Assembly (NCBI GenBank): GCA_041673285.1 | Contig: JBAYXY010000001.1 | Location: 1-27,143 of the forward strand | Origin: Minisyncoccota bacterium | GTDB taxonomy: Bacteria; Patescibacteriota; Minisyncoccia; Minisyncoccales; Minisyncoccaceae | Direction: 5' to 3' | DNA length: 27,143 nucleotides | The notes under the pieces: model-generated | What the model was told of the DNA's origin: nothing | What the model saw: only the letters and a program-made list of their open reading frames with translations | Database searches by the model: none | In this document: one piece after another, positions 10,897 through 16,496 of the stretch | How positions within the stretch are numbered: position 1 is the stretch's first letter | How the letters are laid out: the number at the start of each line of letters is the position of its first letter | Made by a program: the position numbers and the translations under genes

Positions 10897-11367
10897 ATGA
10901 ATAAAAAAGTATTTACAAGTCACAGGCAAGCAATAACTGCTTGTGCATTCATATATCATAATTTTGATGATGTGATAAAGGTATTCTTACCAAAAAGAGC
11001 TGATACGAAGAAATTTTTACCTAGCGTTTTTGAGATGCCAGGGGGACATATTGATTGGGGAGAGGATATTATTGAGGGATTAGAGCGCGAAATTATGGAA
11101 GAGCATGGGATGCGGATAAAGGTTGGCGATCCATTCGCAGTTTTTACTTATTTAAATGAAGTAAAGGGATTTCATTCCATTGAGGTTATTTATTTTGCAA
11201 ATTTTAAAGATCCGATTGCGGATATTAAGCTTAATCCTGAGGATCATTCTGAGTTTAAATGGTTTTCAGAATGTGAAATAGAAAGTATTTCGCAAATCAG
11301 CGAAGCTGAATTGAAAGGTATAAGGAAAGGATTCGCAATTTTAAGCGGAAAGAAACTATTAGCTTAA
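10897..11367 (+). CDS. Nudix hydrolase
   Basis: Nudix box GGHIDWGEDIIEGLEREIMEEHG; downstream EDHSEFKW. Confidence 0.9.
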   Translation: MNKKVFTSHRQAITACAFIYHNFDDVIKVFLPKRADTKKFLPSVFEMPGGHIDWGEDIIEGLEREIMEEHGMRIKVGDPFAVFTYLNEVKGFHSIEVIYFANFKDPIADIKLNPEDHSEFKWFSECEIESISQISEAELKGIRKGFAILSGKKLLA

Positions 11368-11417
11368 AAAGTCTTTGATTTGTAATTATATAATGTTATA
11401 TGGACGCATACAAAGTA

Positions 11418-11446
11418 TTGACATATTTATTTTTGCGTTTTATGAT
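11418..11446 (+). promoter_or_regulatory. Near-consensus sigma70 promoter for the aaRS-paralogue cluster
   Basis: TTGACA (11418-11423), 17 nt, TATGAT (11441-11446). Confidence 0.7.
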
Positions 11447-11488
11447 AGAAATATAATATTAAATGTTCTTTGAAAATTGGTGATTAAA

Positions 11489-13851: not shown

Positions 13852-14885
13852 TTAGACCAAATAATTTAAAAAAAAGAGATATAATAGGATTAATTAGTCC
13901 ATCTTCGCCTTTGGCTGGAATGGTTCCGCATAGAGTGAAAAATGGAATTGAAATGTTGGTGTCTTTGGGCTTTAAAGTGAAAGTAGGTAAAAATGCACTA
14001 TTAGTCAATGACTATATTGCTGGCGATCCTAAAAAAAGAGCAGAGGATATTCATGATTTTTTTAGAGATTCTGAAATTACAGCAATAATTTCTTTTACAG
14101 GTGGAAATCACTCCAATCAAGTTTTGGACTATTTAGATTTTGAATTAATTAAAAAGAATCCGAAAATATTTTTAGGATATTCTGATATTACAGTTTTGCA
14201 TTTTGCTTTCTTGACACAGTGTAATTTAGTGACTTTTTATGGGCCATCAGCATTAAATCAGTTTGCGGAAAATCCTAAAATGTTACCCTATACAGAAGAA
14301 TATTTTAAAAAGGCATTAATGCAGGCAGATCCTATAGGGGAGGTGTGTCCTTCAGGGGAATATACGGAAGAGGTGCTAAATTGGTTTAAGAAAGAAGATT
14401 TAAAAAGGAAAAGAAAAATGAAAAAGAACTCTGGATGGGAGTGGCTTCAAGAAGGGAATGCAAAAGGATTGATCTTAGGTGGATGCATCTCATCGATGAT
14501 GCATTTAAGAGGTACAAAGTTTTGGCCGAGTTTTAAGAATAAGATTTTGTTTTGGGAGATCTCTGAAGGAGATTCTATTGAAAAGGGGGAGTCGTTAGCT
14601 AATATAGATACACATTTAATGGATTTAAAATTAACTGGTGTTTTTAAGGAAATAAAGGGGATGATAGTGGGAAGGCCTTTTGGCTACACTTCAAAGGAAG
14701 TTGAAAAGTTAAAGGAAATGATTAAAAAATACTTGAGAGATTGTAGCATCCCTGTACTTTTTAATGTTGATATTGGGCACACTGATCCGATGATAACTGT
14801 TCCGTTGGGAGTAGAAGTAGAAATAGATAGCAAGAGAAATACATTTAATTTTTTAGAAAGTGGTACGAAATATTATGAAAAGTAA
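13848..14885 (+). CDS. S66 family serine peptidase, MccF-like (microcin C self-immunity type)
   Basis: IGLISPSS, GGNHSNQVLDYLDFELIKKNPKIFLGYSDIT (Ser112), FWE (Glu237), DIGHTDP (His311), loop EYTEEVLNW (Trp179). Confidence 0.85.
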   Translation: MIRPNNLKKRDIIGLISPSSPLAGMVPHRVKNGIEMLVSLGFKVKVGKNALLVNDYIAGDPKKRAEDIHDFFRDSEITAIISFTGGNHSNQVLDYLDFELIKKNPKIFLGYSDITVLHFAFLTQCNLVTFYGPSALNQFAENPKMLPYTEEYFKKALMQADPIGEVCPSGEYTEEVLNWFKKEDLKRKRKMKKNSGWEWLQEGNAKGLILGGCISSMMHLRGTKFWPSFKNKILFWEISEGDSIEKGESLANIDTHLMDLKLTGVFKEIKGMIVGRPFGYTSKEVEKLKEMIKKYLRDCSIPVLFNVDIGHTDPMITVPLGVEVEIDSKRNTFNFLESGTKYYEK

Positions 14886-15630
14886 AAATTGGGAAGAAGA
14901 GTTTAAAAGAGGGGATAATATAGAAACATATCAAGAGATTGGTAATTATTGGTGGGTTGATTGTTATAAGGATATAGATTTAAAGTTGCGGAAGAGTGTC
15001 CCCATTAAAAAATATATGAAAGTATTGGAATGTGGTTCAGGAACTGGGAATTCAAGTTTATTATTAGCAAATGATGTAAAGCATGTAGTTTTATTAGATC
15101 AATCAAAGAATGCAATAAGATCTTCAAAGAAATTAGCTGAGTATTATAATGTTAAAAATATTGATTTTATAAATGGAGATATTTTTAAAATGCCATTTAG
15201 CAATGAATCTTTTAATCTTTGTTGGAATATTGGTGTTTTAGAGCATTATAACATAGAGCGAGCAAAAAAAATAATATTAGAAATGAGAAGAGTAACAAAA
15301 AAGGGTGGATATATGTGTATAGGGGTTCCTAATTTTAAATCATTAGCTATTATCAGAGCAAGACTATTGTCAAGTTCCTTATTAAAGCCGATAACAAGTT
15401 CTATTGATGGGTATAGATTAGATGATGAAAGAAAGTATACAATTAGTCAATTTAAAGATATTTTTTTAGATTTAGAGAAGAATGGTATTTTTTTTAATAA
15501 TATTTCTTATCATTATGCGGGAAGTTTTTTGCCAGTAGAAATTTCCGAAAAAAATTATAAAAGATTGATGAGATTAAAATTTTTTTTAAAAGATTTTTCT
15601 TTTCTTATTTTAGTTATAATTAAAATTTAA
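14875..15630 (+). CDS. Class I SAM-dependent methyltransferase
   Basis: VLECGSGTG, LLDQS, GDIFKMPF, FNLCWNIGVLEH, RRVTKKGG. ATG at 14875; the tracked GTG start is 14860. Confidence 0.88.
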   Translation: MKSKNWEEEFKRGDNIETYQEIGNYWWVDCYKDIDLKLRKSVPIKKYMKVLECGSGTGNSSLLLANDVKHVVLLDQSKNAIRSSKKLAEYYNVKNIDFINGDIFKMPFSNESFNLCWNIGVLEHYNIERAKKIILEMRRVTKKGGYMCIGVPNFKSLAIIRARLLSSSLLKPITSSIDGYRLDDERKYTISQFKDIFLDLEKNGIFFNNISYHYAGSFLPVEISEKNYKRLMRLKFFLKDFSFLILVIIKI

Positions 15631-15641
15631 AATATTTGAAT

Positions 15642-16496
15642 ATGTCAAAACACTATAGTAGGGTTAAGGGATATTTTTCACAAAAAGCAGAAAAATATGA
15701 TATGGTTGATGAGCAATTGTATTGGAAGCTATCTGATGAGTTGTTGAAAAAAATAGTGGAAGAAAAAATTATAAAAAACAATTTAAGTAAAAAAAAGATA
15801 AATATTCTTGATGCAGGAGCTGGTACTGGAAGATGGTCTTTGATTATTTATGATCTTTTGGAAAAAGAAAAAATAAAATCTCAAATAGATATGGTAGACA
15901 TCACAGAAGAAATGCTAAATGAGGCTGAAAAGAAAATAAAGGCTAAGAGAATATCAGATTCCTTTAATTTGTATACTGGAAATATAGAGAATTTGCCTTT
16001 TATTAAAGATGAGTATTATGACATAGTGATTTCTTTTTATAATGTATTAAGTTTTGTAGAAAATCCTTTAGTTGCAATCAAGGAGATTTATAAAAAAATT
16101 AAAAAAGGAGGAGTATATGTTTCGGTTGTGGCTAATAAATATCACTCTTATTTTTTTAAAATTTTAACAAATGATATAAAAGAATTATCTAAGATTAAGA
16201 ATAGTTCGTTGGTTAGGTTTAACGACAACATGCCATACATTCATTGTTTTACCCCAAATAAGATTAAAAACTATTATAAAAAGGCAAATTTTTCAAACGT
16301 AGAGGTTTTTGGCTTTCCTAATTTTGTTTATCCGAATATAGAGGAAACATTTTTAGAAGGGCAAAGCATAGAAAATAAAAATATTTTAAGTGATCAAGAT
16401 AATTTTAAAAAGATATTTGATTTAGAGTTTTCAAAATGTTTTAATGAGGATCTTGCAACAAGGGGAAATACATTATTGTGTTTTGGTAAAAAATGA
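15642..16496 (+). CDS. Class I SAM-dependent methyltransferase
   Basis: ILDAGAGTGRW, VDITEEML, GNIENLPF, YDIVISFYNVLS, IKKGG. ATG at 15642; the tracked TTG start is 15636. Confidence 0.88.
   Translation: MSKHYSRVKGYFSQKAEKYDMVDEQLYWKLSDELLKKIVEEKIIKNNLSKKKINILDAGAGTGRWSLIIYDLLEKEKIKSQIDMVDITEEMLNEAEKKIKAKRISDSFNLYTGNIENLPFIKDEYYDIVISFYNVLSFVENPLVAIKEIYKKIKKGGVYVSVVANKYHSYFFKILTNDIKELSKIKNSSLVRFNDNMPYIHCFTPNKIKNYYKKANFSNVEVFGFPNFVYPNIEETFLEGQSIENKNILSDQDNFKKIFDLEFSKCFNEDLATRGNTLLCFGKK

Follow-up and report, generated by a model that had tools for sequence, protein, structure and literature searches.

Truncated synthetase-like enzymes, an MccF-like peptidase and two methyltransferases in a Patescibacteria genome: a conserved cassette with a probable aminoacyl-nucleotide product

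Introduction

What would a bacterium with a genome of ~0.6 Mb do with two incomplete homologues of aminoacyl-tRNA synthetases (aaRSs), lined up with a peptidase and two methyltransferases? The locus that raises this question lies at positions 10897-16496 of a stretch of 27,143 nucleotides (nt) of contig JBAYXY010000001.1 (assembly GCA_041673285.1, Minisyncoccota bacterium), and we refer to the whole stretch as the window. The genome is spread over 95 contigs with a completeness of 92.8%, and the window shows Patescibacteria-type traits, i.e., low G+C, a pronounced strand bias, and dense co-oriented genes. Six open reading frames (ORFs), all in the same direction, fill the locus. A preliminary description, made from the letters of the DNA, had read them as a cluster for the biosynthesis of, or immunity to, an aaRS inhibitor. 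Much of that reading stands, as the row holds a homologue of AgnA, an S66 peptidase of the MccF/AgnC5 type, and an AlaRS-like protein of the AcmF type; the Nudix hydrolase at its head was found not to be conserved. From homology and gene context, the other five genes probably form an operon that builds, tailors and hydrolyses a small aminoacyl-nucleotide that stably mimics an aminoacyl-adenylate, and we propose this kind of product because counterparts of the enzymes occur in the pathways of agrocin 84, ascamycin and microcin C (McC). The mimic would most likely belong to the poisons of tRNA synthetases, with neither a ribosomal peptide nor MccB involved in its assembly.

The features of the locus are as follows.

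10897-11367, plus strand: Nudix hydrolase (PF00293, E 1e-14; no specific NCBIfam equivalog)
11418-11446, plus strand: promoter-like site TTGACA-17-TATGAT upstream of the operon (consensus match only)
11489-12655 (alternative start 11477), plus strand: AlaL, truncated AlaRS-like and AcmF-like (PF01411 positions 2-375 of 552)
12742-13851, plus strand: AsnL, AgnA-family, AsnRS-derived catalytic core (PF00152 positions 71-307)
13848-14885, plus strand: S66 serine peptidase of the MccF/AgnC5 clade (N- and C-terminal S66 domains)
14875-15630, plus strand: MT1, class I S-adenosylmethionine (SAM, AdoMet) methyltransferase, 'gamma' type (Pfam Methyltransf_31/25/11)
15642-16496, plus strand: MT2, class I SAM methyltransferase, 'beta' type (UbiE/Methyltransf_25 matches)

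The gene coordinates, domain calls, overlaps and gap given in the preliminary description all proved exact by ORF calling, Pfam, NCBIfam, and direct reading of the sequence. By such reading, the AsnL and S66 genes share an ATGA overlap at 13848-13851; the S66 and MT1 genes overlap by 11 nt (MT1 ATG at 14875), and an 11-nt gap separates MT1 from MT2 (MT2 ATG at 15642). The near-consensus promoter that had been pointed out at 11418-11446 is also there, matching at 11 of 12 positions and being the top promoter-like site within 10700-17800; such sites overall scarcely exceed chance in AT-rich DNA (47 vs. 37.6 +/- 6.5 expected).

Conservation of the cassette

The first indication that the genes belong together is that they recur together elsewhere, in arrangements that can be sorted as follows.

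Type A (the window; L009/L010 at 68-84% identity; L011 at 47-69%): AlaL-AsnL-S66-MT1-MT2, with wholly different flanks
Type B (L013/L014, L018, L019): AlaL and an AlaRS catalytic domain of canonical type, convergent with a methyltransferase, an AdoMet decarboxylase, S66 and AsnL
Type C (L012, L016, L020, L021): S66, pyridoxal phosphate (PLP) decarboxylase, methyltransferase, two dCTP-deaminase-like genes and AlaL
L035, a metagenome-assembled genome (MAG) of Elusimicrobia: MFS pump-AsnL-methyltransferase-S66-divergent AlaL-full alaS

The co-occurrence in other genomes that the preliminary description had asked for is seen both in the five-gene order of L009, L010 and L011 (47-85% identity overall) and in the rearranged relatives. 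Because the same order recurs amid different flanks, we take 11489-16496 to be a real functional module and no chance run of housekeeping genes. An S66 gene lies within ~5 kb of AlaL in all ten distinct AlaL loci, and AsnL adjoins S66 in 13 of 15 loci. A smaller triad, AsnL-methyltransferase-S66, was found at L038, L039, L040 and L042, with variants at L041, L043 and L044; the source label of L038 is Desulfonauticus and that of the AsnL of L039 is Moranbacteria.

Two of these triads (L038:3428-5692 and L039:10023-12286) carry two further genes, one for an RlmN/Cfr-like radical SAM enzyme that is cut short at its N-terminus and one for a very divergent protein of 435 amino acids (aa) that resembles LysRS (273 bits vs. 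a cut-off of 468). RlmN and Cfr are adenine C2/C8 methylases that act in RNA. The amino-acid module thus seems to differ between cassettes.

In Type B, the AlaRS catalytic domain is 430-453 aa long and scores 454 bits to alaS positions 1-427. Such a spare domain partners AlaL in L013, L016, L018, L019 and L021, and there is none in the island that holds the window cassette. In at least two genomes (G001 and G004) it is an extra copy beside an AlaRS with an editing domain, and for this reason the spare domains of Types B and C fit either an AcmD-like supplier of charged tRNA or a resistant target.

Type C (e.g., L012:1210-7822) has no AsnL; it combines an MccD-like enzyme with the PLP decarboxylase, the two dCTP-deaminase-like genes, and HIT and/or YqcI/YcgG. 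An AdoMet decarboxylase or a second AlaRS domain occurs as a further extra. With AsnL absent and the dCTP-deaminase-like and other genes in its place, Type C seems to use another nucleotide scaffold, whether built on a pyrimidine or different in some other way. A tblastn search of plasmids with the Type C PLP decarboxylase did not retrieve MccE, and direct comparison of the two gave weak likeness (E 1e-6 to 1e-8).

Close homologues of AlaL (68%) and AsnL (82%), P0009 and P0101, are filed at NCBI under a 'Candidatus ainarchaeum sp.' MAG, a DPANN archaeon; either the contigs were mis-binned, or the genes have passed between archaea and bacteria of ultra-small size.

AsnL and the AgnA family

AsnL (369 aa) is a class IIb core without an anticodon-binding domain, and it matches the asnS model at positions 184-451 only. 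It aligns to AgnA of plasmid pAgK84 at 30% identity across 332 aa (E 2e-46), the N-terminal part of the core included, and other members of its family reach 39-43% identity to AgnA. A maximum-likelihood tree was built from 27 class IIb sequences, with the wrongly extracted ORFs L049 and L051 excluded. In this tree, AsnL and AgnA form a clade (support 100/99) that has AgnA nested inside and canonical AsnRS as its sister group. The members of the clade have in common an SSPMGxGSDS insertion and retain the motif 2 and motif 3 arginines. We accordingly place AsnL, on these alignments, in the AgnA family ('agrocin 84 synthetase'-like) and regard it by analogy as a candidate adenylate- or phosphoramidate-forming enzyme. 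With an E-value limit of 1e-10, the AsnL family numbers no fewer than 957 proteins, many of them at 55-85% identity. The best NCBIfam match of AsnL is 'asparagine synthetase A', at 170 bits vs. a cut-off of 389, and its NCBIfam matches to EpmA are weak.

The S66 peptidase

The preliminary description had called the S66 protein MccF-like, and had named a plain LD-carboxypeptidase as the case that would speak against its reading. Comparison with PDB chains agrees with the former and not with the latter: chains of the MccF clade are matched at E 1e-62 to 1e-46, and LdcA at E 1e-17 to 1e-9. Identity is 31.6% to AgnC5 (E 2e-52) and 32.5% to E. coli MccF, and a tblastn search of plasmids recovered agnC5 of pAgK84 ('MccF-like protein') together with mccF of E. 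coli plasmids. The GYSD, FWE and GHTDP motifs and Trp179 align with S118, E243, H311 and W186 of MccF, so that the catalytic triad and the tryptophan are both conserved. W186 of MccF stacks on adenine, and MccF protects against McC while LdcA does not (PMC8323819). The window protein, which is encoded by the only S66 gene of its genome, is on this evidence assigned to the MccF/AgnC5 clade, nearer to MccF than to LdcA.

AlaL as a candidate transferase

AlaL (388-392 aa) consists, per Pfam, of the aminoacylation and tRNA-recognition domains only, the editing and C-Ala domains being absent. The AlphaFold2 model of AlaL has a pLDDT of 88 and a TM score of 0.78 to the E. coli AlaRS 1-441 fragment over ~420 alignment columns. 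When the family is aligned to E. coli AlaRS, R69, FFEM, W170, N212 and the motif 3 Arg are seen to be retained. At the position of D235 (E. coli numbering) the family has either D or E, and the window protein has Glu. Other changes are AGM to A(S/T)I (ASI in the window) and an insertion after W170, and the subgroup to which the window protein belongs further carries E209P and G237A. An Asn303-type residue and an Asp400-type residue in 'DTYG' are kept, which in E. coli AlaRS are the readers of the G3:U70 pair. The window protein is 23% identical to the AlaRS of its own genome. The family is small, with ~25 proteins of 367-403 aa in a 90%-clustered collection, and an exhaustive profile search returned ~20 representatives above 245 bits, followed by canonical AlaRS.

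The closest parallel is AcmF of the ascamycin pathway, a truncated AlaRS-like protein that likewise has the aminoacylation and tRNA-recognition domains only, with D232E and N219Q; it does not activate alanine, and instead moves Ala from Ala-tRNA(Ala), supplied by the cluster-encoded AlaRS AcmD, to the NH2 of a nucleoside sulfamate (PMC12945691). We judged the likeness of AlaL to AcmF from the published description of AcmF, with residues numbered via E. coli AlaRS. As modelled, AlaL has the AcmF-type two-domain architecture, and by analogy it is more likely an Ala-tRNA-dependent transferase than a ligase that activates amino acids. The preliminary description had supposed that both pseudo-synthetases activate amino acids and ligate them; this still suits AsnL as an AgnA homologue, whereas for AlaL the comparison with AcmF makes transfer likelier.

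A second AlaRS-like family was noticed in L022-L034 (e.g., L024:5996-11778). Its members are ~375 aa long, share the signature FTNATITPF and have Arg at the N212 position; their hosts are MAGs labelled Saccharibacteria, Nomurabacteria, Levyibacteriota, Dormiibacterota and others. They lie in a conserved cluster of their own, which holds a class IV aminotransferase, a WelO5-like Fe/2OG enzyme, a GFO/MocA-like oxidoreductase and an S51 peptidase; YqcI/YcgG is frequently there as well, and in some cases so is a spare AlaRS catalytic domain. S51 is the MccG-type family of McC immunity peptidases, and the cluster looks like another pathway of the aminoacyl-nucleotide type in which S51 replaces S66.

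Methyltransferases and the Nudix hydrolase

Two SAM methyltransferases had been described, and both are present and recur in sister loci. MT1 has orthologues in L011 and in the AsnL/S66 loci L041, L043 and L035. MT2 is 61% identical to the MT2 of L011 and shows 27-32% full-length identity to the methyltransferases of L038, L040 and L042; its type is that of the widespread AsnL-methyltransferase-S66 triad. MT1 and MT2 are not of the MccD/AgnB1 type, their likeness to these two enzymes being confined to the SAM motif. In contrast, homology to MccD as well as to AgnB1 extends over the full length (E 1e-27 to 1e-53) in the methyltransferases of L035 and of Types B and C, which adjoin decarboxylases.

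The Nudix hydrolase had been proposed to give self-protection as a member of the cassette. It is missing upstream in L009, L010 and L011, and thus rides with the island and is no conserved member of the cassette.

Housekeeping synthetases of the genome

If AlaL and AsnL were the only such enzymes of their host, charging of tRNA would be their obvious task. A canonical, full-length alaS is, however, present on contig C8, separate from the window contig (437 bits for positions 1-432, 515 bits including neighbours). Class IIb is otherwise represented in the genome by an AspRS of bacterial type and a LysRS, each at 598 bits. The expectation that asnS and aspS would be found elsewhere was thus right for AspRS; a search of the 92.8%-complete genome found no canonical AsnRS, and there are two GatB-type genes (C76 and C22), from which we take it that Asn-tRNA is probably made by transamidation. 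Canonical AsnRS was found in only five of the 41 genomes of the phylum sampled. With AsnRS not found, GatB present, and AsnRS rare in the phylum, an asparagine synthetase role of AsnL would have no evident use in translation. By these gene assignments, the window paralogues are not the organism's working synthetases.

The cassette lies in an inserted island

The cassette is cargo of an island between murE (8254-9483) and atpB (17717-18412), whose features beyond those listed above are given below.

9678-17661: inserted island, ~8 kb
9750-10832, plus strand: AAA_14/DUF4143 ATPase (Pfam), island cargo outside the cassette
16811-17510, minus strand: decayed rve/DDE transposase at the right end of the island, downstream of the operon

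The island thus contains the ATPase, the Nudix hydrolase, the five-gene operon and a dead transposase. The spacing of murE and atpB is 298-401 bp in four genomes of the same genus and 89-1283 bp in genomes of the same family, vs. 8233 bp here. Nucleotide homology to the congeners stops near 9677 and restarts at 17662-17664, within their inverted repeat GTCAAGAaatCTTGAC. The preliminary description had seen a pseudogene and an insertion sequence (IS) scar past the operon, and indeed the helix-turn-helix, TDNGSEF and RPHEALDFLTP motifs of the transposase remnant are spread over three different stop-to-stop frames. AsnL was found in none of 20 relatives (eight of the same genus, four of the same family and eight of the same order) and in seven of 401 sampled genomes of the phylum, its own genome counted; S66 was found in two of the 20, both as contig-end fragments. 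The cassettes of relatives neighbour a serine recombinase, an rve fragment, type IV secretion system (T4SS)/TrwB genes or restriction(-modification) genes. Taken together, comparison of the genomes indicates that the cassette is a horizontally acquired island.

Within the spacer, a minus-strand ORF of ~50-55 aa and the next 42-nt stretch (9484-9677) are kept in congeners and mark the ancestral murE-atpB spacer. The island sits in the inverted repeat of this spacer, just upstream of an atp promoter-like site (17669-17697). A search for repeats of the island itself returned only AT-rich chance repeats, a 15-nt inverted pair (9651-9665/17596-17610) being too weak to call. ARAGORN found no tRNA gene in the window, and hence no tRNA attachment site; Rfam at gathering thresholds found no riboswitch and no T-box there. 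A tblastn search of 16497-17716 found no remnants of the cassette-associated genes for the radical SAM enzyme and a 432-aa protein.

Cargo of the defence-island type lies beside the cassette (9750-11367). PADLOC reports the ATPase as candidate PDC-S01 (E 9e-139) and the Nudix hydrolase as candidate PDC-S07 (E 1e-13). Among the cassette proteins it gave no family-specific match: MT1 and MT2 gave generic matches to the methyltransferase domain of mad2, S66 a weak match, and AlaL and AsnL none.

Word matching over DNA metagenomes from eight studies found the island at 100% identity in 15 or more of them, and four others hold it at 93-99%. The samples with full identity come from bioreactors, landfill, digesters, soil and wastewater, and in one soil run and one digester run there are contigs that cover the cassette with zero differences. 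In wastewater run X19, a contig of a more abundant, slightly divergent strain joins 10833 to 17664, so that the ATPase is kept and the Nudix gene, operon and IS remnant are skipped. This is suggestive of a strain variant without 10833-17663, and only suggestive because one side of the joint is just 30 nt long.

Elsewhere in the window, a 403-aa ORF on the minus strand (6397-7608) lies in a patch of raised G+C (0.41 vs. ~0.30) and has no Pfam or NCBIfam match.

Proposed function and alternatives

The steps of the proposed pathway would be as follows. AsnL would use ATP to join an amino-acid-type substrate to AMP, probably through a phosphoramidate, a link suggested by the role proposed for AgnA and by the AsnRS ancestry of the enzyme. 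AlaL, drawing on Ala-tRNA(Ala) that the housekeeping AlaRS has charged, would then transfer the alanyl group to an amine in the nucleotide intermediate. MT1 and MT2 would methylate the product, and S66 would cleave the acyl-N bond beside the nucleotide, either for self-protection of the producer or for processing of an intermediate.

Several observations weigh against this proposal. AgnA itself has a role that is only proposed, its activity never having been demonstrated (PMC8323819). Unlike AcmF, AlaL has N212 and the Asn/Asp readers of G3:U70, and it also keeps the motif 2 and 3 arginines; as these class II arginines are retained, AlaL might still use ATP and act as an ATP-dependent ligase. 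The acyl pocket of S66 departs from that of MccF, with GGCISS in place of GGNLNT. The window cassette is without an exporter, a spare target synthetase, an MccD-type enzyme and a decarboxylase. The pathway needs SAM, and yet a search of the genome (92.8% complete) turned up no MetK of the bacterial type. Evidence from RNA amounts to one 311-nt contig in one RNA run, identical to 12329-12639, which is too little to demonstrate an operon transcript.

A variant of the proposal gives S66 a biosynthetic part. In this variant, AsnL would make Asx-N-P-adenosine from the amide nitrogen of asparagine, S66 would remove aspartate to leave adenosine 5'-phosphoramidate, and AlaL would alanylate its NH2, the end product being a methylated alanyl-phosphoramidate adenosine. 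Such a product would be a naturally occurring counterpart of Ala-AMS with phosphorus in it, and AlaRS would be its target; an episymbiont would use it against its host or competitors. The last transfer would mirror that of AcmF onto the NH2 of a sulfamate. We find this variant attractive but rather unlikely.

Of the readings that dispense with our proposal, the one that survives best is that the island serves resistance or salvage only: S66 would hydrolyse the aminoacyl-nucleotide antibiotics of neighbours, the methyltransferases and the Nudix hydrolase would inactivate the fragments, and the aaRS-like proteins would bind or reuse the pieces. MccF homologues are mostly stand-alone resistance genes (PMC8323819), the window cassette lacks an exporter and a spare target synthetase, and there are candidate defence genes in the island, all of which suit this idea. 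Nevertheless, S66 would suffice for hydrolysis, and yet an AgnA-family enzyme with intact motifs stands beside it in 13 of 15 loci; moreover, sister cassettes add biosynthetic tailoring in the form of an MccD-like methyltransferase with a decarboxylase, or an RlmN/Cfr-like radical SAM enzyme. We therefore consider resistance or salvage alone unlikely.

Anticodon-less class IIb paralogues such as EpmA are known to modify proteins, and the cassette might by extension aminoacylate a macromolecule, whether a protein, a tRNA or a cell-wall precursor (cf. EpmA/EF-P and Fem/lipid II), with the methyltransferases and S66 trimming or tailoring it. Beyond the precedent of EpmA and the weak matches to it, the tRNA readers retained in AlaL, the RlmN/Cfr-like radical SAM enzyme and LysRS-like protein of some sister cassettes, and the adjoining murE could be cited in favour. 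The murE adjacency, however, is accidental, as the congeners have murE next to atpB. The spread is patchy (AsnL in 0/20 relatives), S66 is of the MccF type with the adenine-stacking Trp and not of the LdcA type, and sister cassettes hold dCTP deaminase (DCD), HIT and MccD/AgnB1 homologues, so that modification of a macromolecule appears quite unlikely.

Less probable still is anti-phage abortive infection or a toxin/antidote pair, in which a toxic nucleotide analogue would be made upon infection and S66 would be the antidote. The setting is in keeping with such a role, given the PDC-S01 and PDC-S07 candidates in the island, the restriction-modification, recombinase and T4SS neighbours of the relatives, and the dCTP-deaminase-like genes of Type C. 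In contrast, the five cassette proteins themselves have no family-specific PADLOC match, their nearest characterised homologues all come from exported antibiotics (agn, mcc and acm), and one relative (L035) has an MFS pump in the operon.

A chance row of housekeeping genes, i.e., an archaeal-type asparagine synthetase (AS-AR), a minimal second AlaRS, a murein-recycling LD-carboxypeptidase and unrelated methyltransferases, would be in line with the compact, co-oriented genomes of the candidate phyla radiation (CPR) and with the best, sub-cut-off NCBIfam match of AsnL (170 vs. 389 bits), but we reject it as highly improbable in view of the separate alaS, a cassette conserved amid unrelated contexts, an inserted island missing from congeners (AsnL in 0/20 and S66 in 2/20 relatives), no AsnRS to use free Asn, and the grouping of AsnL with AgnA apart from AsnRS.

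If the proposed aminoacyl-nucleotide pathway is right, antimetabolites of this kind can be assembled without a ribosomal peptide, by an AgnA-type enzyme together with an AcmF-like tRNA-dependent transferase. The cassette reduces the problem of the AgnA family to three to five small genes that are open to reconstitution in vitro. As mobile cargo of ultra-small, metabolically minimal bacteria, it could also bear on their competition or their dealings with hosts.

Comparison with known systems

A search of the available literature returned no description of such cassettes in Patescibacteria, nor of AgnA, MccF-like and AlaRS-like genes together; one published account places agn-like clusters in Ensifer and Actinobacteria only.

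The agn cluster for agrocin 84 (pAgK84, Rhizobium rhizogenes K84) has in common with the window a synthetase (AgnA, AsnL) and an S66 peptidase (AgnC5), and in both there are genes of the SAM-dependent methyltransferase fold next to the synthetase. Sister cassettes come closer, with true AgnB1 homologues and with spare synthetases like AgnB2. In contrast, a search of these loci gave no homologue of any of AgnC1-C4, C6, C7, D, E, F and G, the window methyltransferases are not of the AgnB1 type, and the window is without a resistant target synthetase. An AlaRS-like enzyme is present in the window and absent from agn. Where agn resides on a rhizobial plasmid, the window cassette resides in a Patescibacteria genome of ~0.6 Mb.

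Microcin C of E. coli (mcc, MccA-F) also differs from the window. There is no MccA peptide gene, MccB has no BLAST match in any of the loci, and the window ORFs have no ThiF domain; an MccD-type enzyme, MccE and a pump are likewise missing from the window. The nucleotide link would come from an aaRS-derived enzyme, not from MccB. What is the same is the S66 peptidase, at 32.5% identity to MccF with the S118/E243/H311 triad and W186 kept. Sister cassettes add MccD homologues beside a decarboxylase, which is the aminopropylation logic of MccD/MccE, and HIT (MccH-like) and MFS (MccC-like) genes.

For ascamycin (acm; PMC12945691; Zheng et al., ACS Catal 2024), the cassette holds none of the sulfamate and halogenation genes, AlaL has kept the Asn of the N212 position, which is Gln in AcmF, and AlaL has Asn/Asp readers of G3:U70 that AcmF is reported to be without. 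Nevertheless, AlaL has the two domains of AcmF and stands in a nucleotide-type cluster, its Glu at the catalytic Asp position (D or E in the family as a whole) recalls D232E of AcmF, and its pairing with a canonical AlaRS catalytic domain in sister cassettes is like that of AcmF with AcmD.

On our reading the cassette is a probable member of the aminoacyl-nucleotide antimetabolite clusters. Specific to the window are the Type A architecture (an AcmF-like AlaL, an AgnA-like AsnL, an MccF-like S66 and two non-MccD methyltransferases), the boundaries of the island, and its identity across metagenomes.

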